Source: Methyloradius sp.
GTDB lineage: Bacteria; Pseudomonadota; Gammaproteobacteria; Burkholderiales; Methylophilaceae
NCBI GenBank assembly: GCA_035460505.1
Contig: DATHWP010000091.1
Span: 14,554 to 78,553, forward strand
Direction: 5' to 3'
Length of the DNA: 64,000 nt
Shown here: in pieces, positions 9,643 through 28,811 of the stretch
How the letters are laid out: each line of letters begins with the position of its first letter
Numbering within the stretch: the stretch's first letter is position 1
The notes under the pieces: model-generated
Seen by the model: only the letters and a program-made list of their open reading frames with translations
The model's database searches: none
What the model was told of the DNA's origin: nothing
Position numbers and translations under genes: made by a program

Positions 9643-9691
9643 GGGATTGTTTTGGGGCAGACCAATAATTAACCCGCACCAAATGAGTGCG
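9643..9691 (+). promoter_or_regulatory. Tandem NtrC-type enhancer boxes; the strong box lies inside a 15-bp inverted repeat (9665-9701) that may also terminate the kinase gene
   Basis: CGCAC-CAAATGA-GTGCG (9675-9691) fits GCAC-N7-GTGC; weaker site ending TGGGGCA (9643-9659) starts 32 bp upstream. Confidence 0.65.
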
Positions 9692-9753
9692 GGTTAATTA
9701 TATGGCAAACTTGTTTTTGCCTAAGATGATGATTAATTTTGATATTTAACTAC

Positions 9754-9768
9754 TGGCATGCGCTTTGC
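9754..9768 (+). promoter_or_regulatory. Sigma54 (-24/-12) promoter of the ATP-grasp/alpha-E/Anbu operon
   Basis: TGGCATGCGCTTTGC = GG-N10-GC, close to consensus TGGCACG-N4-TTGC. Confidence 0.8.
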
Positions 9769-9781
9769 GTGGAACTAGGCT

Positions 9782-12262: not shown

Positions 12263-12430
12263 ATGACCATCAAACCTGAAATCCTGTCTAATCCAATTCC
12301 AAAAAAGACTGTGCAGCAGCCTGATACTAGGGATACACTGCCAGAAAAGCAAATACAAACACGCGATCAGCCTGCGTATCCAAACAGCAAAGTCAAAATA
12401 CGTCAGGCAGAAGAAGCGCAACAGCAGTAA
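12263..12430 (+). CDS. Small 55-aa Gln/Lys/Pro-rich peptide ending in QQQ (absent from the ORF track)
   Basis: Manual translation MTIKPEILSNPIPKKTVQQPDTRDTLPEKQIQTRDQPAYPNSKVKIRQAEEAQQQ*; fills most of a 290-bp gap on the operon strand; Shine-Dalgarno weak. Confidence 0.55.
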   Translation: MTIKPEILSNPIPKKTVQQPDTRDTLPEKQIQTRDQPAYPNSKVKIRQAEEAQQQ

Positions 12431-12473: not shown

Positions 12474-13706
12474 ATGAACGCAACTACTATTGATTCATTA
12501 CGCTTTACCCGTCACGGTGATAAACAAAACTCGGCTTTTTTTGAAGAATATCTAGTCCGTCTTCTCGAAGAGCGCGACCAACTCGGCCTCACCGCGCTGA
12601 TACACGAGATTGACGCCTTGATGATCACGGTGGACCCCGGGCATTCAATCCAGTACATCGCCGAACTGTCATTGATGACTTCATACCATTATCTGGTGAC
12701 CCTAGAGAGTGAGTCACACTGGACGCATATCTTGCGCATTGATCTTAATTCACCAGACATTTTGTTGCGTGAGGTGAAAGACCCGAATTTGCGTGGTATT
12801 TTCCGTTCATTGAACGAGGTTTATCCAGTTGGCGCCAAGAAACCTAATAGCCGCTACATGGGTGAAATCATCCGCGTGAGTAATTTGCACGATGTGGTCA
12901 AGCTTCAGCAAGCGCGTGAATTCCGTTTTTTCTCACAAGATGAAGTACGTAAAATGGAATTTCCTGGCAACATTGCGGTGAGTAAGCCTTCACCTTATAC
13001 CCATAATGTCGTTGGTTATCTTGAACGTAAACCTAGTGAGCTTCGTGTCTACGCACTTGGTATGAGCGTGATTAATCCAGAGGTACAAGCTGCCTACGAA
13101 GCTTCGAAAACGCTGCAGAAAAAGCTGAATTTTGATGAATTGTTGTTGCCGATCGATCACTTGGCAACGCGTGTCTATAGCCAAAATCGTGAAGTGGCAA
13201 TCTTGGAGTATTTGTCATTGACCAGTTACCACTTCTGGGGCGCCTACAATATTTTTGACCAGAACTCTTCGACTAACGTGACCAAGAGCGTGCATGATTT
13301 ACCGGAATCAAAAAGCCCAGCCAAGGTATTTACCGCCAACAACACGCCATATTTCGTCAGCCATTTAGAACATCTACCTTCGCCTACGGAAACATTCGTC
13401 CGTAACTATGGGCCACGCTTGCACCACATGGCGATTGCGGTGAAAGATGGCGAGACCGCAGGGCAGGAGAATATCGAATTCGTGGTCAAGGCCATTGCTG
13501 ACCAAGGTAAAGGTTTCTTGCTTGATGTGATTGGTTCTAAAGAAGAAGGCTTGAAACAGATATTCTCAAATGCTTCGGAACACTCATCACTGATTATTGA
13601 ATACGTGCAACGCTTTGGCGATTTTGACGGTTTCTTTACTCAAGATAACGTGGCTAAGCTGACTGAAGCTGCAGGCCATGAAGAATCACTCAATTACGCT
13701 GTGTAG
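12474..13706 (+). CDS. Divergent HPPD-like (two-domain VOC) putative Fe(II) enzyme of unknown function
   Basis: IDHLA (H229), SPTETFVRNYGPRLHHMAI (H318), LKQIFS, IIEYVQR (E376), then GF..N: same order as the motifs of 4-hydroxyphenylpyruvate dioxygenase. Confidence 0.65.
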   Translation: MNATTIDSLRFTRHGDKQNSAFFEEYLVRLLEERDQLGLTALIHEIDALMITVDPGHSIQYIAELSLMTSYHYLVTLESESHWTHILRIDLNSPDILLREVKDPNLRGIFRSLNEVYPVGAKKPNSRYMGEIIRVSNLHDVVKLQQAREFRFFSQDEVRKMEFPGNIAVSKPSPYTHNVVGYLERKPSELRVYALGMSVINPEVQAAYEASKTLQKKLNFDELLLPIDHLATRVYSQNREVAILEYLSLTSYHFWGAYNIFDQNSSTNVTKSVHDLPESKSPAKVFTANNTPYFVSHLEHLPSPTETFVRNYGPRLHHMAIAVKDGETAGQENIEFVVKAIADQGKGFLLDVIGSKEEGLKQIFSNASEHSSLIIEYVQRFGDFDGFFTQDNVAKLTEAAGHEESLNYAV

Positions 13707-21839: not shown

Positions 21840-22718
21840 TTAACTATTGATCAGCTTTACCGAGACCTCAACATCCAGCGTATGCGAGCCACCACCCAGC
21901 ACAATACCGTGCATGGGTGATACATCACTGAAATCACGGCCCCAGGCTACGGTGATATGTTCGTTTTGCACGAGGCAATTATTGGTGGGGTCAAAATCTA
22001 TCCAGCCATAAACTGGGCAATAAACTGATACCCAGGCGTGCGATGCATCAGCACCCACCATGTCTTCCTGGCCTGGTGCGCGATGTGTGAGTATGTAGCC
22101 GCTGATATAGCGGCAAGATAATCCAAGGCTACGTAGGCAGCCTATCATCAGGTGTGAAAAGTCTTGGCACACACCGTGTTTGTTTTCTAACACTTCGCTT
22201 AACGGGGTGTCGATATGCGTGGCATCTGGGTCAAAATCGAACTCATTGTAGATGCGTTGCGTGAGGTCAAACGCCGCTTGTAGGAGTGATTTGTTGGGGC
22301 TGAAACTTAAGCGTGCGTAGTCAGCAAGTGCATCGCTGCAAGCCACATAAGGCGAGCCAAATAAAAAGGCCTGCGCATCCTGGTTTTGTCCATTCAGCAT
22401 ACGCAGATTGTCTCTGACTGTTTCCCAAGCTGGGCTTTGATACAGATCACCAAGTTTAAGCCGTGGCATCAGCTGCACTTCAAAACTTGAATTAACAGCA
22501 AGCTCGCGATGTGGCGTGACCATGGCGAAATAATCAGTGATATTGCCAAAGTAATCGTGTTTTTTTAATGATTCATTGGGTGGTGGTGTGATCTCAAGCG
22601 TATGGGTCAGGCAGGTCTGCGCATAAAAATCACGCGGTGACATGTGCAGCAATTGCTGCGAGAGCATTACTGGACCTTCATAGTAGTAGTGGGTGTTGTG
22701 TAAAACGCGATAACGCAT
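21840..22718 (-). CDS. Transglutaminase family protein (Bact_transglu_N plus core)
   Basis: Cys-His-Asp triad motifs GVCQDFSH, ASHAW, FDPTN; GRDFSDV. Confidence 0.93.
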   Translation of the reverse strand: MRYRVLHNTHYYYEGPVMLSQQLLHMSPRDFYAQTCLTHTLEITPPPNESLKKHDYFGNITDYFAMVTPHRELAVNSSFEVQLMPRLKLGDLYQSPAWETVRDNLRMLNGQNQDAQAFLFGSPYVACSDALADYARLSFSPNKSLLQAAFDLTQRIYNEFDFDPDATHIDTPLSEVLENKHGVCQDFSHLMIGCLRSLGLSCRYISGYILTHRAPGQEDMVGADASHAWVSVYCPVYGWIDFDPTNNCLVQNEHITVAWGRDFSDVSPMHGIVLGGGSHTLDVEVSVKLINS

Positions 22719-22733
22719 GGGTATTATTTGAGC

Positions 22734-25343
22734 CTAAAAATTGAATATCTCTTGCTGCGATATTTCTTGGGCAGAGAGTTCTTGAAGTTGCCCAGAGTAA
22801 CTGAAAAAACGGTGACTGAGGCTGTCAGACAGGGCAATGCTGGCATTGTAGGTTTCATCCAGCCAAGCAATCAACTCTGTATTGCCTTGGCGGAACACCA
22901 CGTCAGGGTCAAATAGGCGCAATGCGGCTAAACGGCCAATAAACTGGCCTTCGCCGCCGCTGCCGTAGGTGGCCGTGATTTGGGCGAGATATTTAATCAG
23001 GCCTTTGAGCTGGAACACCATGGCGTTTGGGTTGTTCTCATCCATCAGGATTAAGTCTAACATCGGCAGCCACTCGGCTTGCGAGGAATATCGATAGCGG
23101 TAGGTGACAATGCTATCAGTTAGTTCTAGCACCCAATCCAAATTGCTCTCTGCGGGCATTTTCAATGCACGGCTTAATAGGGTACACAAAAACTGCAAGC
23201 GCTCGATACGACGGCCAATCGACATGAAGCGCCAGCCTTGGTCACGCGTCATGCCATCCAGCGTGAAGCCTGATAATGTGACTAGGGATGCCGTGGTTTC
23301 ATCTAGTATCAATAAGCCCTCGCTGAGTGTGGCTGATTCAGGGCTGTCGGTAAAACGCTGCGCCATCTGGTTAATGTTGCGCCAGTTGTCGCTGGAAAGT
23401 CGTTCGCGCAGGTTAAATGCGAGGGTCTGGAAACCTTGGATATGGCTGGCCAAGCTTGGCGAATCAGATGAAAAAATGCCCGAAACCAGCAGTGACTCGA
23501 TTAACTCATCACTCAGTTCGGGTTCTGCCAAAGAGCCTAATGCTTCACTAGATTTAATCCGTGGATTTTCTTCGTTATCCGCAGACATCAGCCCATACCA
23601 GTTGCACAGCCCTTGTATGGTTGGCCATTCCATTGCGCGATGCTCGGTGGTGAATTCCATGAAACAGTGGATCGCTGTGCGTAGCAATCTCGAAAAATGG
23701 TGATTGCGTACCGCATAGCGACCAAACCAGAACAGGTTTTCTACCATGCGGCTAGAAAGATTGGCATTGCCTTTAACCAAGTCGCGGCTAGATGATGTCT
23801 TGCGCAACAGGCTGCGGTAGCTAGTCACATAAGGCGCTGTTACCCAGGTATCTTTGCTGGTGCCACCATTTTGCATGGTGATCACACGTTCGTCTTGACC
23901 GCTAGCGACACGCGTTAACCCACCCGGCATGACCACGTAACCTTGTGGTGTGGCGCAGGCGTAAAGGCGTAGACCTACAGCGAGTGAGCCAAGTGCTGGT
24001 TCATCTTTGCCAGTCTCTGCATTCCAAACGGGGGCTTGCGAAATCTTTACCTGCTCTTGCGCCACATAGTTTTGTGGATTGGCACAGAGTTTGGCAATTA
24101 GCGCGTCACGCTCAGCGTGGTTCAGGTCTTCACCAAAAATTGGTTGCTCGTTGATTTGTGGGAATGCTGGTTTTATGACTAAGGTATGCAGATTTTCAAT
24201 CACCGTTTCAAGCGCATGCGGCTCACCACACCACCATGTGGCGACGGATGGCATCAATAGTGATTCGCCAAGCAAACGGCGGCAGAGGCTAGGTAAAAAT
24301 CCGAGCAAAGCACCAGTTTGCAGCAAATTAGAACCTAAGCTATTAGCAATCAGTACATTACCGCGGCGTGCTACTTCAGTAAGGCCTGCGATACCGAGTA
24401 CGGAAATGGAATTGAGTTCCAGCGGGTCGCAGAAGTCATCATCCAGACGCCGCAATATGGTGTGTACTGGTTTAAGGCCAGACAGTGTTTTTAGCCAGAC
24501 TACACCATTGCGCACGGTGAGGTCATTACCCTGTACCAGTGGAAAGCCCAGATAGCCTGCGAGATAAGATTGCTCGTGGTAGGTTTCGTTGTAAGGGCCT
24601 GGGGTGAGCAGTACTGTGAGTGGTTGCTCACCATCGCCCAACGCTTTTATTTTTGGGTTACTGCGAGACTGATTAGCCGCACAGACTCTACCCCAATAGG
24701 CAAGGCTGTCGCGCATAGTGGCAAAAAATCCACTCAGGCGCTGTACGTTCAGATCACGAAATAACTCGGGGAATGCGCTGGAGATAATCAGGCGGTTTTC
24801 CAGCGCATAACCTGCGCCAGAGGGCGCTTGTGTACGATCTGCCACTACCCACCAGCGGCCATCGGGCGAGCGTGCCAAATCAACTGCATAAGTGTGTAGA
24901 GAGTAATTATCTGGGTACTTAATGCCATGACAAGGCCGCAAAAATCCAGCATGGCCATGTATTAGGGCTGGCGGAAGAATGCCTTCTTTTAGCAGGTTTT
25001 GGTCACCATACACATCGTTAAGTATGGCGTTAAGTAAGGTCGCTCGTTGGATAACGGCGGCTTCTATCCCTGCCCATTCTTCATGCGGTAGGATAAATGG
25101 AAGTACATCAAGTCCCCAAGGCCGCTGCAAGCCTTTTGTATCTGCATACACATTGTAGGTGACACCATTTTCACGGACTTGGCGTTGGATAGATTCTACG
25201 CGCTCACGCATTTGCGCAGGACTCACTTGCTCAAGCGTGCTAATCAGCTCTTGCCAGTGCGGGCGAGGTTTGCCTGATGACTCAAGCAACTCATCGTGGC
25301 GGTCTTGATGGCCAGGATAACTATTCAAAATCGATTCCAACAT
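22734..25343 (-). CDS. Circularly permuted type 2 ATP-grasp / alpha-E fusion protein
   Basis: GVTYNVY, ADRTQAPSGAGYALENR, ILRRLDDDFCDPLEL, MPGGLTRV, SKDTWV, then SRMVENLFWFGRY and GRRIERL; start at ATG 25343 inferred (track start 25370). Confidence 0.9.
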   Translation of the reverse strand: MLESILNSYPGHQDRHDELLESSGKPRPHWQELISTLEQVSPAQMRERVESIQRQVRENGVTYNVYADTKGLQRPWGLDVLPFILPHEEWAGIEAAVIQRATLLNAILNDVYGDQNLLKEGILPPALIHGHAGFLRPCHGIKYPDNYSLHTYAVDLARSPDGRWWVVADRTQAPSGAGYALENRLIISSAFPELFRDLNVQRLSGFFATMRDSLAYWGRVCAANQSRSNPKIKALGDGEQPLTVLLTPGPYNETYHEQSYLAGYLGFPLVQGNDLTVRNGVVWLKTLSGLKPVHTILRRLDDDFCDPLELNSISVLGIAGLTEVARRGNVLIANSLGSNLLQTGALLGFLPSLCRRLLGESLLMPSVATWWCGEPHALETVIENLHTLVIKPAFPQINEQPIFGEDLNHAERDALIAKLCANPQNYVAQEQVKISQAPVWNAETGKDEPALGSLAVGLRLYACATPQGYVVMPGGLTRVASGQDERVITMQNGGTSKDTWVTAPYVTSYRSLLRKTSSSRDLVKGNANLSSRMVENLFWFGRYAVRNHHFSRLLRTAIHCFMEFTTEHRAMEWPTIQGLCNWYGLMSADNEENPRIKSSEALGSLAEPELSDELIESLLVSGIFSSDSPSLASHIQGFQTLAFNLRERLSSDNWRNINQMAQRFTDSPESATLSEGLLILDETTASLVTLSGFTLDGMTRDQGWRFMSIGRRIERLQFLCTLLSRALKMPAESNLDWVLELTDSIVTYRYRYSSQAEWLPMLDLILMDENNPNAMVFQLKGLIKYLAQITATYGSGGEGQFIGRLAALRLFDPDVVFRQGNTELIAWLDETYNASIALSDSLSHRFFSYSGQLQELSAQEISQQEIFNF

Positions 25344-25465
25344 TCCTCCGACCACCTTTACTACCCTCAATGCTCAGTCCATGAACTCTTTAGAATTCTG
25401 GCTATATTGATAGAAGAGCTTTTATATTTGTTTTATCCGTCAGACAAGCGCCTGAAAGTATTAAA

Positions 25466-25498
25466 TGCATATAGGTTAAAAAAGTTAACCTATATGCA
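25466..25498. repeat. Perfect 14-bp inverted repeat inside the operon
   Basis: TGCATATAGGTTAA-AAAAG-TTAACCTATATGCA. Confidence 0.7.
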
Positions 25499-25514
25499 AC
25501 TTTAATTACCTATA

Positions 25515-28500
25515 TTAAACATCTTGCCAGCGCAGGTCTAGCGTAAAAGGAAAGCGGGGATTCCGTTGTTCTTCTTCAATTTGCCTTGCGCCTGGCGTGT
25601 GACCATGCCCCCAGAAGCGTGTAAAGCGACGTGCTTCTGCCTCTAGCGCATTGACGGGGAAGGTCGCGTAATTGCGGCCACCAGGATGCGAGACATGATA
25701 AGTACAGCCACCAATTGCGCGGCCACTCCAGGTGTCGACCAAGTCAAATACGAGAGGGGCATGCGGTTTGATGGTTGGGTGTAGGGCAGACCAAGGATCC
25801 CATGCGCGGAATCTCACGCCAGCCACATATTCACCAGCAACGCCTGTTGGTTGTAGCGGCAACGGACGGCCATTACAGGTGACGATGTGGCGCGAGTCAG
25901 TCAGGCCGCGCACTCGCAATTGCATGCGTTCGACGGACGAATCTACATAGCGTGCAGTACCACCGCCTGCCATTTCTTCGCCCAGCACATTCCATGGCTC
26001 AATCGCCTGCCTGAGTTCAAGCTCCACGCCTTCATAAGCCACTGTGCCATACCGAGGAAAGCGGAATTCGATGAATGGGTCAAACCAGCGCTTTTCAAAT
26101 TTGTAGCCAGCGCGATTTAAATCCTTCACTACATCGGCCATATCTTGTGCAATGAAGTGGGGCAGCATCCAGCGGTCATGTAGCTCAGTACCCCAATGGA
26201 TGAGCTTGCCTTGATATGGCTCGCGCCAGAAACGTGCAACGAGTGCACGCAGTAGCAGCATCTGCAGCAAGCTCATGCGTGCATGCGGTGGCATTTCGAA
26301 GGCGCGGAATTCAACCAGGCCAAGACGGCCAGTCGGGCCATCTGGCGAATAAAGCTTATCAATCGAGAATTCAGCGCGGTGGGTGTTGCCAGTCAGGTCA
26401 ACGAGTAGGTTACGTAGCAACCTATCAACCAGCCACGGCCGTTCGCTTTCTGCGGTATCTGGCAGTACTTTATCCATTTGCTGAAAAGCAATCGCCAGTT
26501 CGTAAAGATTGTCATCACGTGCCTCATCTACCCGTGGTGATTGGCTGGTAGGTCCGATGAACGTGCCTGAAAACAGGTAAGACAGTGCAGGGTGATTTTG
26601 CCAATAACTGATCAGGCTTTTTAGCACATCAGGGCGGCGTAGCATCGGGCTATCTGCAGCAGTTGCGCCACCTAGGGTGGCATGATTGCCGCCACCAGTC
26701 CCAGTATGGCGACCATCCAGCATGAACTTTTCTGTACCGAGCCGCGTTTGGCGGGCTTCTTCATAGAGGATGGTCATCTTATCGACCAGTTCACGCCAGG
26801 TACTGGATGGATGAATGTTCACTTCAATCACGCCAGGGTCAGGTGTGACACTCAGCACCTTGATGCGCGCATCGCGCGGCGGGGTGTAGCCTTCAATCCA
26901 TAATTTAAGCTTGAGTTCAGCAGCGGTTTGTTCAACCGTGGCAATCAGCGCTAGATAATCTTCAATGCGCACAACGGGTGGCATAAACACATGCAGGCGA
27001 CCATCGCGCACTTGCACACACAGTGCTGTAAACACAACTTCGCGCGGCAGCGGTTTTTCCTTGAGTATTCTTTTGGCAACTATGCCTGGCGTAGTGGCAT
27101 CTGGTAATTCAGCCAGTTTTGCAAACGGGTCAACAGGAAACGCAGGGTCCACATCTTCAGGTAGCAGCTCTGGGAGCGAGGCCAGCGGTAGTCGCAACCC
27201 CATAGGTGAGTCCCCAGCCAGCAAATACAGGTGTTCGCGCTTAAGTGGCCACTTACTTGTGAGCCAGTTGCTGACATTCTTTTTGCGAGTTTCCTCGGGT
27301 TTGATCGGCATGACATAGCCAACAGTTTCATTCAGGCCAGTCTCCAGAAGCTTTGCCAGCCTGCGGCGTTCTTCGCTATCTTTTAAATTCGCTTTGAGCG
27401 GATCCACATTTTCTGGCAGGCGTAATTCCATCACCGATTGCTGCAGCACATCCTCATAAGCAGGAATCAGGCAGGCAGTTGGCAGCCCTAAATTAGTCGC
27501 GAGTTTTGCCGAGAATTGCTCGGCATGCGCTGCAGTATATTGATCTGATATTTTTTCATCGGAAAAAAGTGATGCGTCTTGCCATATTGGCTTACCGTCT
27601 ACTCTCCAGTAGATATTGATTGCCCAGCGCGGCAATGGCTCGCCTGGGTACCATTTACCTTGCCCATAATGCAGTAAACCGCCAGGCGCAAAATGTTGCT
27701 TAAGCTTGAGTGAAAGCTCGCCTGCCATCTCGCGTTTTTTAGCACCGTGGGCGGCTACATTCCACTCGGCACCTTCCATATCGTCAATCGAGACAAAAGT
27801 CGGCTCACCGCCTTGCGTCAGCCGTACATCTTGTTTCTTGAGATCAGCATCTACTTTCTGGCCAAGCTTATCGATTCTCAGCCAGTCAGCTTCGCTGTAA
27901 GGCTTGGTGACGCGTGGGTCTTCGTGAATCCGAGTGACTGACATCTCATGGGTGAAAATCACCTCGGCTCTATCTGACATGCCTGTCACAGGCGCAGCAG
28001 AAGATGGGGTTGCAGTGCAGGCCAGCGGAATATGGCCTTCGCCTGCCATCAGGCCAGAGGTTGCATCCAGACCAATCCAGCCTGCACCTGGAATATAAAC
28101 TTCAGCCCAGGCATGCAAATCAGTGAAATCTACTGCTGTGCCGCTTGGACCATCCAAAGATTTGATGTCAGCCGCTAATTGGATTAAATAGCCAGACACG
28201 AAGCGCGCGGCCAGCCCAAAGTGGCGCATGATCTGCACCAACAGCCATGCGCTGTCACGGCAAGAGCCGGTGCGGTTGGTCAGGGTTTCTTCCGGCGTTT
28301 GCACACCTGGCTCCATGCGTACCAGATAGCCGATATCACCCTGTACCATCTGGTTAAGTGCGACCAGAAAATCACCAATACCAAGGTTTTGGCTAGAAAA
28401 TTTCTGCTCTGCCGCATTCAGCCAGTTCTGTAGTAAGGGGCCAATCGGGTCAGCCTTTAAATATGGGCTGAGTTCATGTTCGAGTTGTTCTGTGTACTTG

Positions 28501-28811
28501 AATGGATAAGTCTCGGCATATTTTTCAACGAAGAAATCAAACGGGTTGATGACTGTCATGTCTGCAACCAGATCGACCGTGAATTCAAGCTCACGCACCT
28601 TTTCAGGGAATACAAAGCGCGCGATGTAATTGCCGTAAGGGTCTTGCTGCCAGTTAATAAAATGCTTTTCGGGAATGACTGAAAGTGAATACGACAATAT
28701 GGGCGTGCGCGCATGCGCTGCGGGCTTTAACCTGACTTCATGCGGTGAGAGGCTGACTAGGCGATCAAACTGGTAACTGGTTTTATGGTGCAACGCGACA
28801 CGAATCGCCAT
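25515..28811 (-). CDS. Large transglutaminase / DUF2126 (putative amidoligase) fusion protein
   Basis: WQQDPYGN, GSCRDSAW, DLHAW, LDATSG; LTQGGEPTFVS, TPDPGVIEVN, GTGGGNH, GNTHRAEF, VEFRAFEMPPH. Confidence 0.92.
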   Translation of the reverse strand: MAIRVALHHKTSYQFDRLVSLSPHEVRLKPAAHARTPILSYSLSVIPEKHFINWQQDPYGNYIARFVFPEKVRELEFTVDLVADMTVINPFDFFVEKYAETYPFKYTEQLEHELSPYLKADPIGPLLQNWLNAAEQKFSSQNLGIGDFLVALNQMVQGDIGYLVRMEPGVQTPEETLTNRTGSCRDSAWLLVQIMRHFGLAARFVSGYLIQLAADIKSLDGPSGTAVDFTDLHAWAEVYIPGAGWIGLDATSGLMAGEGHIPLACTATPSSAAPVTGMSDRAEVIFTHEMSVTRIHEDPRVTKPYSEADWLRIDKLGQKVDADLKKQDVRLTQGGEPTFVSIDDMEGAEWNVAAHGAKKREMAGELSLKLKQHFAPGGLLHYGQGKWYPGEPLPRWAINIYWRVDGKPIWQDASLFSDEKISDQYTAAHAEQFSAKLATNLGLPTACLIPAYEDVLQQSVMELRLPENVDPLKANLKDSEERRRLAKLLETGLNETVGYVMPIKPEETRKKNVSNWLTSKWPLKREHLYLLAGDSPMGLRLPLASLPELLPEDVDPAFPVDPFAKLAELPDATTPGIVAKRILKEKPLPREVVFTALCVQVRDGRLHVFMPPVVRIEDYLALIATVEQTAAELKLKLWIEGYTPPRDARIKVLSVTPDPGVIEVNIHPSSTWRELVDKMTILYEEARQTRLGTEKFMLDGRHTGTGGGNHATLGGATAADSPMLRRPDVLKSLISYWQNHPALSYLFSGTFIGPTSQSPRVDEARDDNLYELAIAFQQMDKVLPDTAESERPWLVDRLLRNLLVDLTGNTHRAEFSIDKLYSPDGPTGRLGLVEFRAFEMPPHARMSLLQMLLLRALVARFWREPYQGKLIHWGTELHDRWMLPHFIAQDMADVVKDLNRAGYKFEKRWFDPFIEFRFPRYGTVAYEGVELELRQAIEPWNVLGEEMAGGGTARYVDSSVERMQLRVRGLTDSRHIVTCNGRPLPLQPTGVAGEYVAGVRFRAWDPWSALHPTIKPHAPLVFDLVDTWSGRAIGGCTYHVSHPGGRNYATFPVNALEAEARRFTRFWGHGHTPGARQIEEEQRNPRFPFTLDLRWQDV

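Follow-up and report, generated by a model that had tools for sequence, protein, structure and literature searches.

The Anbu operon, which was defined in Iyer et al. 2009 (PMC3268129, through the citing papers PMC6376114 and PMC5666114), encodes a circularly permuted (CP) ATP-grasp ligase (PF14403/PF04174), an alpha-E protein (PF04168), a transglutaminase-like protein (TGase; PF08379/PF01841) and Anbu (PMC6376114, PMC5666114). In the available text of PMC6376114 and PMC5666114 (structural) neither a substrate of the system nor an activity of Anbu is reported, and neither a Gln tail nor a small ORF is mentioned for the operon. Genes for DUF404/407, DUF403 and TGase-domain proteins have been described as NtrC-dependent in Burkholderia (PMC5491218), and in Pseudomonas putida Anbu is induced when nitrogen is limiting (as cited in PMC5666114). 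A search of the open-access literature, supplements aside, retrieved no paper describing a Gln tail or a small ORF in the Anbu operon.

LysX is an ATP-grasp enzyme, and the LysW-bound product is released by a peptidase; the C-terminal motif of Pup is GGQ or GGE. The LysW and ArgW carriers have ~54 residues and an invariant C-terminal residue that is loaded with a small amine by LysX or ArgX (PMC10433800). The 55-residue peptide described here, which occupies the TGase slot of an Anbu operon in Methyloradius sp. (Methylophilaceae), would resemble them in being small, in its invariant C-terminal residue and in its predicted loading by a neighbouring ligase. However, LysW ends in EDWGE, uses the gamma-carboxyl of Glu and holds zinc via Cys (PMC10433800), whereas the peptide ends in EAQQQ, has no conserved Cys and is probably derived from an enzyme. 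With Pup it shares the small disordered chain, the C-terminal Gln found in some Pup species, a helix on binding and a proteasome-family protein nearby (PMC8599861), but the ligase is of the ATP-grasp and not the glutamine-synthetase-like type, and neither sequence similarity to Pup nor a Pup Pfam match was observed. The analogy with Pup made in a first-pass annotation of this DNA holds only loosely, for a small disordered Gln-ended peptide, and fails in two respects: GGQ/GGE is absent, all six known homologues ending in EAQQQ, and Pup ligase/Dop (PF03136) was not found in the one genome searched, that to which the locus belongs (G000, 88.6% complete), with a control that matched in Corynebacterium. 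As for RimK and S6, an ATP-driven ligase acts on a protein C-terminus, there by adding amino acids, but S6 is a ribosomal protein extended with Glu (PMC10375531), and the peptide described here would be a dedicated carrier that ends in Gln-Gln. The peptide lacks the sequence features that define the TGase, Pup and LysW families and on that ground belongs to none of them; by analogy it would work like a LysW-type carrier and, less likely, like Pup.

The operon and the small gene in its third slot

The window, i.e. the whole stretch of 64,000 nucleotides that was analysed, carries the genes for the CP ATP-grasp ligase, the alpha-E protein and Anbu in their conserved order and in one operon (Table 1). 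The order ligase, alpha-E, TGase slot, Anbu, the nitrogen-type promoter and the Gln tail that ends the third gene are shared with Anbu operons elsewhere; in contrast, the third gene encodes 55 aa instead of about 270 and lacks the catalytic triad, and a 410-aa VOC-like gene precedes Anbu.

Table 1. Features of the Anbu operon, in positions of the window
Feature	Position	Strand	Remarks
Sigma-54-type (-24/-12) promoter motif	9754..9769	+	Upstream of the operon; one of three plus-strand matches in the window
CP ATP-grasp ligase, 474 aa	9782..11206	+	PF14403/PF04174; close to solved structure 3n6x
Alpha-E protein, 315 aa	11236..12183	+	PF04168; no solved relative by sequence
55-aa Gln-tail peptide gene (probable mini-transglutaminase relic)	12263..12430	+	ATG to TAA
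Peptide residues 1-19	12263..12319	+	Matches TGase N-terminus: M..EH.T, then TVQQ vs TIQQ; weak constraint now
Peptide residues 21-55	12323..12430	+	Ungapped match to the C-terminal 34-35 residues of TGase: D-x-R-D-x-x-P ... V-x-V/I-x-Q ... QQ
Peptide residues 25-33, with invariant block L-P-E-K-Q-x-Q-T	12335..12361	+	Predicted interface, probably facing alpha-E
E-A-Q-Q-Q-stop, invariant	12413..12430	+	Three DNA copies differ synonymously only; predicted entry into the ligase active site
410-aa protein, VOC/4-HPPD-like by language-model features	12474..13706	+	No Pfam match
Anbu, proteasome-beta-like Ntn hydrolase, 245 aa	13730..14467	+	PF00227

The sigma-54-type motif was found in 26/26 related loci and in 3/27 distant ones, the latter with short upstream cover, and scans for sigma-70 promoters (9 vs 8.3) and terminators (6 vs 5.1) remained at chance level. 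Upstream of the motif (window 9666-9700) the two 14-bp arms of a perfect inverted repeat enclose a loop of 7 nt; its core resembles an NtrC site, and the repeat could be such a site or the end of an upstream transcript. The 410-aa protein, 72-95% identical across 23 of the 36 family genomes tested, also occurs in Methylococcales, Gallionella and Thiobacillus-like genomes, has VOC/4-HPPD-like proteins as its language-model neighbours and travels with the ligase and alpha-E, the product of which it may modify. A second, related system is encoded on the minus strand of the window (21840-28811) and consists of a 292-aa TGase, an 878-aa protein that matches the ligase at 32% and is probably an alpha-E fusion, and a large TGase-containing protein of 1,098 aa, with the QQ end absent from all three. 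Of 401 genomes sampled across the phylum, 141 have the Anbu gene; at seven loci (L129, L138, L139, L143, L145, L154 and L189) it lacks the ligase operon and immediately follows a gene of ~870-940 aa that, by eye from its sequence, we take to be MutS-like.

The small gene is flanked by those of alpha-E and the 410-aa protein, upstream of Anbu. Its translation and composition were as first annotated: 55 aa, with 9 Gln, 6 Lys and 7 Pro, no Cys, Gly, His, Phe or Trp, and two occurrences of TRD (residues 22 and 33). The repetition of TRD and the absence of His, Cys and Gly are features of the window peptide that are not kept among its homologues, and the ORF is uncalled in the supplied track only: gene finders have predicted its homologues, which were deposited under the name 'hypothetical protein' for Methyloradius. 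The Shine-Dalgarno signal is weak, as had been noted (-1.5 kcal/mol; median of 830 long ORFs, -3.0 kcal/mol), but the two real genes downstream are no stronger (-0.6 each). The six frames of G000 contain 5,637 ORFs of 40-80 aa that start with ATG; 13 of these end in QQ and a single one, this ORF, in QQQ. No Pfam transglutaminase domain (PF01841/PF08379) was matched by the peptide at E 0.1. A DinI match (E 0.06) was below the cut-off and was discarded, as was the possibility that the ORF is an N-terminal extension of the 410-aa gene, the frames being different.

All five candidate proteins returned by a word search were homologues of 55 aa, 71-76% identical to the query, and one more, at 51% identity, came from a profile search against 1.84 billion representatives. 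The length of 55 aa and the EAQQQ end are common to the six, in which M1, K15-T16, R23, L26-P-E-K-Q30, Q32-T33, A38, I46-R47 and E51-A-Q-Q-Q55 are invariant. DNA context was obtained for three of the six, in G000, in a genome of the same genus (G001) and in a metagenome locus (L027) located via an alpha-E motif, independently of the ORF sequence, and the ORF was in the same slot in all three. Conservation of the QQQ-stop with dN/dS below 1 had been proposed as a check of the ORF: frame and QQQ end are kept in 6/6, and pairwise dN/dS over the whole ORF was 0.27, 0.49 and 0.38 for the three DNA copies, with lower values in codons 22-55 (0.15, 0.32 and 0.33) and near neutrality in codons 2-21 (0.46-0.90). 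Third positions accounted for 25 of the 51 variable sites, a Fisher test on rounded counts gave p 6e-4, and a synonymous excess was seen in the ORF frame and the in-register antisense frame and was absent in the other four. In a neutral simulation at d = 0.6, start, frame and stop survived in 1.2% of 20,000 runs, and the QQQ-stop as well in 0.035%. Six of the six indel places fell in the 122-nt spacer and none in the 168-nt ORF (p about 0.006; contigs of four runs from one study), one contig having a replaced stretch that spans the spacer and the ORF start and could not be resolved. Between G000 and G001 dS was 0.60 in the ORF and 0.59 in alpha-E, but in the pairs with L027 it was lower in the ORF (0.36 and 0.69) than in alpha-E (1.40 and 1.07), so that part of the conservation may be at the RNA level or, with three sequences only, noise. 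By these sequence comparisons the ORF is a conserved small gene under purifying selection.

A profile of the six sequences gave convincing matches in G000 and G001 only among 361 family genomes, with three further matches at E 0.003-0.009, two of them with internal stops, and a scan of genome contigs for the peptide pattern gave 149 matches, none of which was confirmed. A search of 50% representatives returned four matches, of which two are genuine 55-aa members and the other two, repeat proteins, were considered spurious; no fused form of the peptide was among them.

Loss of the transglutaminase and probable origin of the peptide

At most family loci alpha-E is separated from the next gene by about 850-1,050 nt, within which a TGase of ~270 aa is encoded; in the window the corresponding interval is 290 nt and contains no full TGase. 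Six TGase-like matches were found in each of G000 and the complete genome G001, the best with 39-40% identity over half of the query, to be compared with 45-65% over the full length for operon TGase orthologues elsewhere; going by these values they are paralogues, and the operon orthologue was not found in the genus (G000, 88.6% complete; complete G001). The 55-aa ORF takes the place of the operon TGase in the third gene slot. The Gln/Lys cross-linking considered in the first-pass annotation is left unsupported, because the cross-linker is the very gene lost here, of which the peptide is probably the relic.

An HMM of 84 distinct TGases gave about 0 bits for the peptide, yet the latter aligns without gaps to the C-terminus of TGase, its D-x-R-D-x-x-P lying on DYRDACP and its VKIRQ on the last strand. 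In anchored profile tests, which were designed after the alignment was seen and are not standard database matches, a 28-column C-terminal block excluding the last 7 residues scored 9.7 at offset 21 and <= -14.5 at all 22 other offsets, with shuffles at -23.9 +/- 6.2 (p 5e-5 over the best offset), and the N-terminal profile scored -3.6 vs -19.0 +/- 3.6 for shuffles (p 7e-4). The C-terminal profile was built from the 52 of 84 TGases that passed a motif filter; with a wider filter that retained 81/84, as high a score was reached by 100 of 4,646,690 six-frame windows of G000, and 6/6 homologues scored best at residue 21. The distance from the Asp of the motif to the end is 35 residues in the peptide and most commonly 33-35 in TGases. 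The DNA identity of the ORF to TGase is only 26-42%, and HMMER, nhmmer and blastn detected no link between the interval and TGase beyond the Gln codons, the recent TGase remnants of loci L022 and L252 being matched strongly in the same standard searches. Since both ends of the peptide match both ends of TGase, the ORF is most likely a TGase gene after an in-frame deletion of ~210 codons, and from this we infer that residues 1-19 descend from the first ~23 and residues 21-55 from the last ~35 residues of the enzyme. The catalytic Cys, His and Asp all lie within the part that would have been deleted, and the peptide has neither Cys nor His.

TGase pseudogenes at several stages of decay, with internal deletions, stops and frameshifts, were observed in the same slot at L022:1250-1477, at L015 (upstream of the VOC-like gene), L252, L206 and L063. 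To judge from such remnants, internal deletion of the operon TGase gene is recurrent.

Gln tails in other Anbu operons

The suggestion of the first-pass annotation that proteins of these operons often end in Gln was confirmed when tails were tallied: 82 of 84 distinct close TGases end in QQ (92 before duplicate removal; L029, cut by a contig end, and the frameshifted L063 were dropped). In the phylum, alpha-E and TGase were present together at 64 of the 90 Anbu loci read, and 47 of these 64 TGases end in Q and 25 in QQ, with Gln among the last two residues in 56 and not in 8. The distance from the DYRD motif to the end varies between 29 and 53 residues across TGases; the last two residues stay QQ. 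In 17 of the 84 close TGases the catalytic Cys is absent (Ser, Tyr, Gly, Trp or Asn instead), and 17/17 end in QQ, although many of them are kin and represent several events rather than 17. Cys-replaced full-length TGases with intact frames and QQ ends were seen at L003, L033, L061, L072, L094, L095, L204, L205, L208-L211, L213, L215, L225, L253 and L278. Such proteins are likely pseudo-enzymes kept as tail carriers.

Operons that lack the TGase frequently have the tail on another of their proteins. Defining a Gln tail as two Gln in the last 8 residues with one in the last 3, which applies to 48 of 1,387 background ORFs, alpha-E carries it in 20 of 42 TGase-less operons of the VOC type, compared with 2/56 TGase-bearing operons in the family and 5/63 in the phylum sample; it was also found in 5 of 12 TGase-bearing operons of the VOC type. 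The tail is not universal in TGase-less operons: in 22 of the 42 it is on neither alpha-E nor the ligase. These 22 include nine Methylomonas loci, as well as two from Gallionella in which TGase remnants have decayed without a tail. A TGase orthologue was absent in the two Methylomonas genomes tested, and in G702 both ligase and alpha-E lack the tail. In two other TGase-less Anbu operons the ligase has an extension ending in QKQTQTN (L289 of G164) and alpha-E an extension with an internal QQQ (L291 of G421). At L140 (G387), alpha-E and TGase form one open frame ending in VEQ, which looks like a fusion unless the sequence is in error.

A 57-aa ORF in the TGase slot of genome G027 (L075:2439-2612, minus strand) starts one base past the alpha-E stop and ends in MQQSQQ, and the alpha-E of this genome is sister (100/99) to one that precedes a Cys-less TGase with the same end. 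No homologue of this ORF (P0006) was found, and its body gave no significant match to close TGases (best p 0.046, 14 tests), for which reasons we regard it as a hint only. In G013 and G011, broken TGase remnants that still end in QQ-stop lie before the 410-aa gene, and alpha-E was not found in either genome; tail DNA can thus linger without the operon, and the G027 case alone proves nothing, but it may be an independent second instance of a stand-alone carrier.

Predicted complex, proposed function and alternatives

The AlphaFold model of the peptide alone shows coil and a single helix, at 42-54 (pLDDT 68, pTM 0.24); this model and that of a TGase (pLDDT 63) are of low confidence and were used for coarse shape only. 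Modelled together with the ligase, alpha-E and ATP, the peptide scored 0.77 (0.77/0.75/0.77), with 0.00 for the best of three controls, none of them a tail mutant, and 0.00 when the ligase was replaced. Of 157 solved complexes 116 reach the passing mark, as do 2 of 215 mismatched pairs; these counts hold only roughly here because an author-made alignment was used and the ligand was along. The runs agreed in at least 53% of contacts, with a partner pLDDT of at least 56. No solved structure of alpha-E was found by sequence, and 3n6x, a relative of the ligase whose entry names it a putative glutathionylspermidine synthase, contains a single chain, so that memory of a like complex is unlikely. In the predicted pose Gln55 touches ligase residues 162 and 164-167, on the EDN-R-T-P-S motif, peptide residues 48-54 touch ligase residues 224-230 and 290-292, and the contacts on alpha-E include R4, W11, R14, R18, N96, D173, R177 and D180. 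Contact positions and motif neighbours have a mean identity of 86% vs 62% overall in 104 ligases, with N162, R164, P166 and S167 conserved at 97-100%, and of 68% vs 51% overall in 130 alpha-E proteins. The earlier idea of a ligase acting on the C-terminus of the peptide has thereby gained a predicted reader. We take E160-x-N162 of the ligase to bind magnesium beside the carboxylate to be phosphorylated, as in glutathione-synthetase-type enzymes. For an Anbu-operon ligase, a two-step acyl-phosphate mechanism and ATP turnover are described in the available text of PMC6376114.

The conservation, selection and Gln tail documented above bear out the suggestion of a stand-alone Gln-tail carrier made in the first-pass annotation, which had missed its probable origin from the TGase gene. 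The reading that we prefer, and to which we give an even chance, is that the peptide is a stand-alone substrate whose C-terminal Gln is activated by the ligase and joined to a small amine. The operon would be switched on by sigma-54/NtrC under nitrogen shortage; the largely unfolded peptide is predicted to bind the ligase/alpha-E pair, its middle block lying on alpha-E and residues 48-55 reaching into the cleft of the ligase, where, on the grounds of ATP-grasp chemistry, the alpha-carboxylate of Gln55 would be converted into an acyl phosphate and then amidated. The acceptor, at a guess, would most likely be a small amine or amino acid, following the carrier or tail-extension logic of LysW/LysX or S6/RimK. 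The attached group may be altered by the VOC-fold enzyme and would be released again by Anbu. Where a TGase is still present, as in relatives, its C-terminus would do the job of the peptide, and this would explain why QQ is kept by catalytically dead TGases. More tentatively, the whole Anbu system could be a ligation/removal cycle on a portable C-terminal Gln-Gln, with TGase often a mere carrier that has here been pared to a freely diffusing 55-residue modifier, charged by ligase and alpha-E and discharged by Anbu; G027 may have done likewise independently.

A different use of the same terminus, its Gln being joined to a lysine or the N-terminus of target proteins in the manner of Pup or ubiquitin, with Anbu removing the tag or degrading the targets and so recycling nitrogen, has been anticipated by a published tagging hypothesis for the operon (PMC6376114), and would suit a peptide that is small and, but for one helix near its C-terminal end, mostly unfolded, and whose free C-terminus is invariant, as well as a proteasome-like Anbu within the operon and the predicted pose in the ligase. 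We nevertheless consider it unlikely, in view of the failure to find the Pup ligase family in G000 and of the fact that most species carry the tail on a 270-aa enzyme or on alpha-E, awkward as a tag. The deposition of 3n6x as a putative glutathionylspermidine synthase also speaks against it, the acceptors of that family being small amines. A binding model alone is equally compatible with a non-covalent plug; Anbu and QQ-ended TGases co-occur even where Anbu has been relocated (5/5 genomes), and a groove for such a tail has been noted on Anbu (PMC6376114). That the modelled terminus sits on a conserved catalytic motif, and that the QQ end is constant while the tail and its spacer differ greatly in length (29-53 residues from DYRD to the end), makes this improbable.

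The remaining explanations deny the peptide a function. The deletion could have left the ends of the TGase gene in frame, the ORF surviving as a decaying relic because it is short and lies beside the next start; the broken QQ-stop remnants of G013 and G011 and the nearly neutral codons 2-21 are in line with this, but dN/dS well below 1, the third-position excess in the ORF frame, the lack of indels in the ORF, the invariance of EAQQQ and LPEKQxQT down to 51% identity, and a body far from TGase and yet conserved within the family now leave it with little probability, and we regard it as largely refuted already. Slightly less credible still is a translational device, with Gln codons sensing charged Gln-tRNA or the ORF ferrying ribosomes to a weak next start and the peptide itself roleless. 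The ribosome-binding signals of the downstream genes are indeed weak, the Gln-tailed gene is usually immediately upstream of the VOC-like gene or Anbu, and the promoter is of the nitrogen type; over 70 loci, however, the distance from QQ-stop to the next recognised gene ranges from -9 to 632 nt with no coupling pattern, QQ is strictly terminal, and peptide residues other than Gln are invariant.

The published TGase pull-down used a C-terminal FLAG tag (PMC6376114), which would mask a free Gln end and could be a reason for its negative outcome. The locus can be viewed as a natural deletion experiment, in which the core of the TGase is gone and only the part still needed has been kept; with the core removed and the tail retained, it would be the Gln-ended tail that is named as the functional part. 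It also offers a candidate substrate of 55 residues, easily made and taken from the operon of its own ligase, a close relative of which has been crystallised (3n6x), so that the substrate question of the Anbu operon becomes directly testable with one short peptide. Besides providing what appears to be a clear case of a small protein born from an enzyme through internal deletion, the peptide, if the proposed function is true, would be a counterpart of Pup or LysW with a different chemistry and an enzymatic birth.
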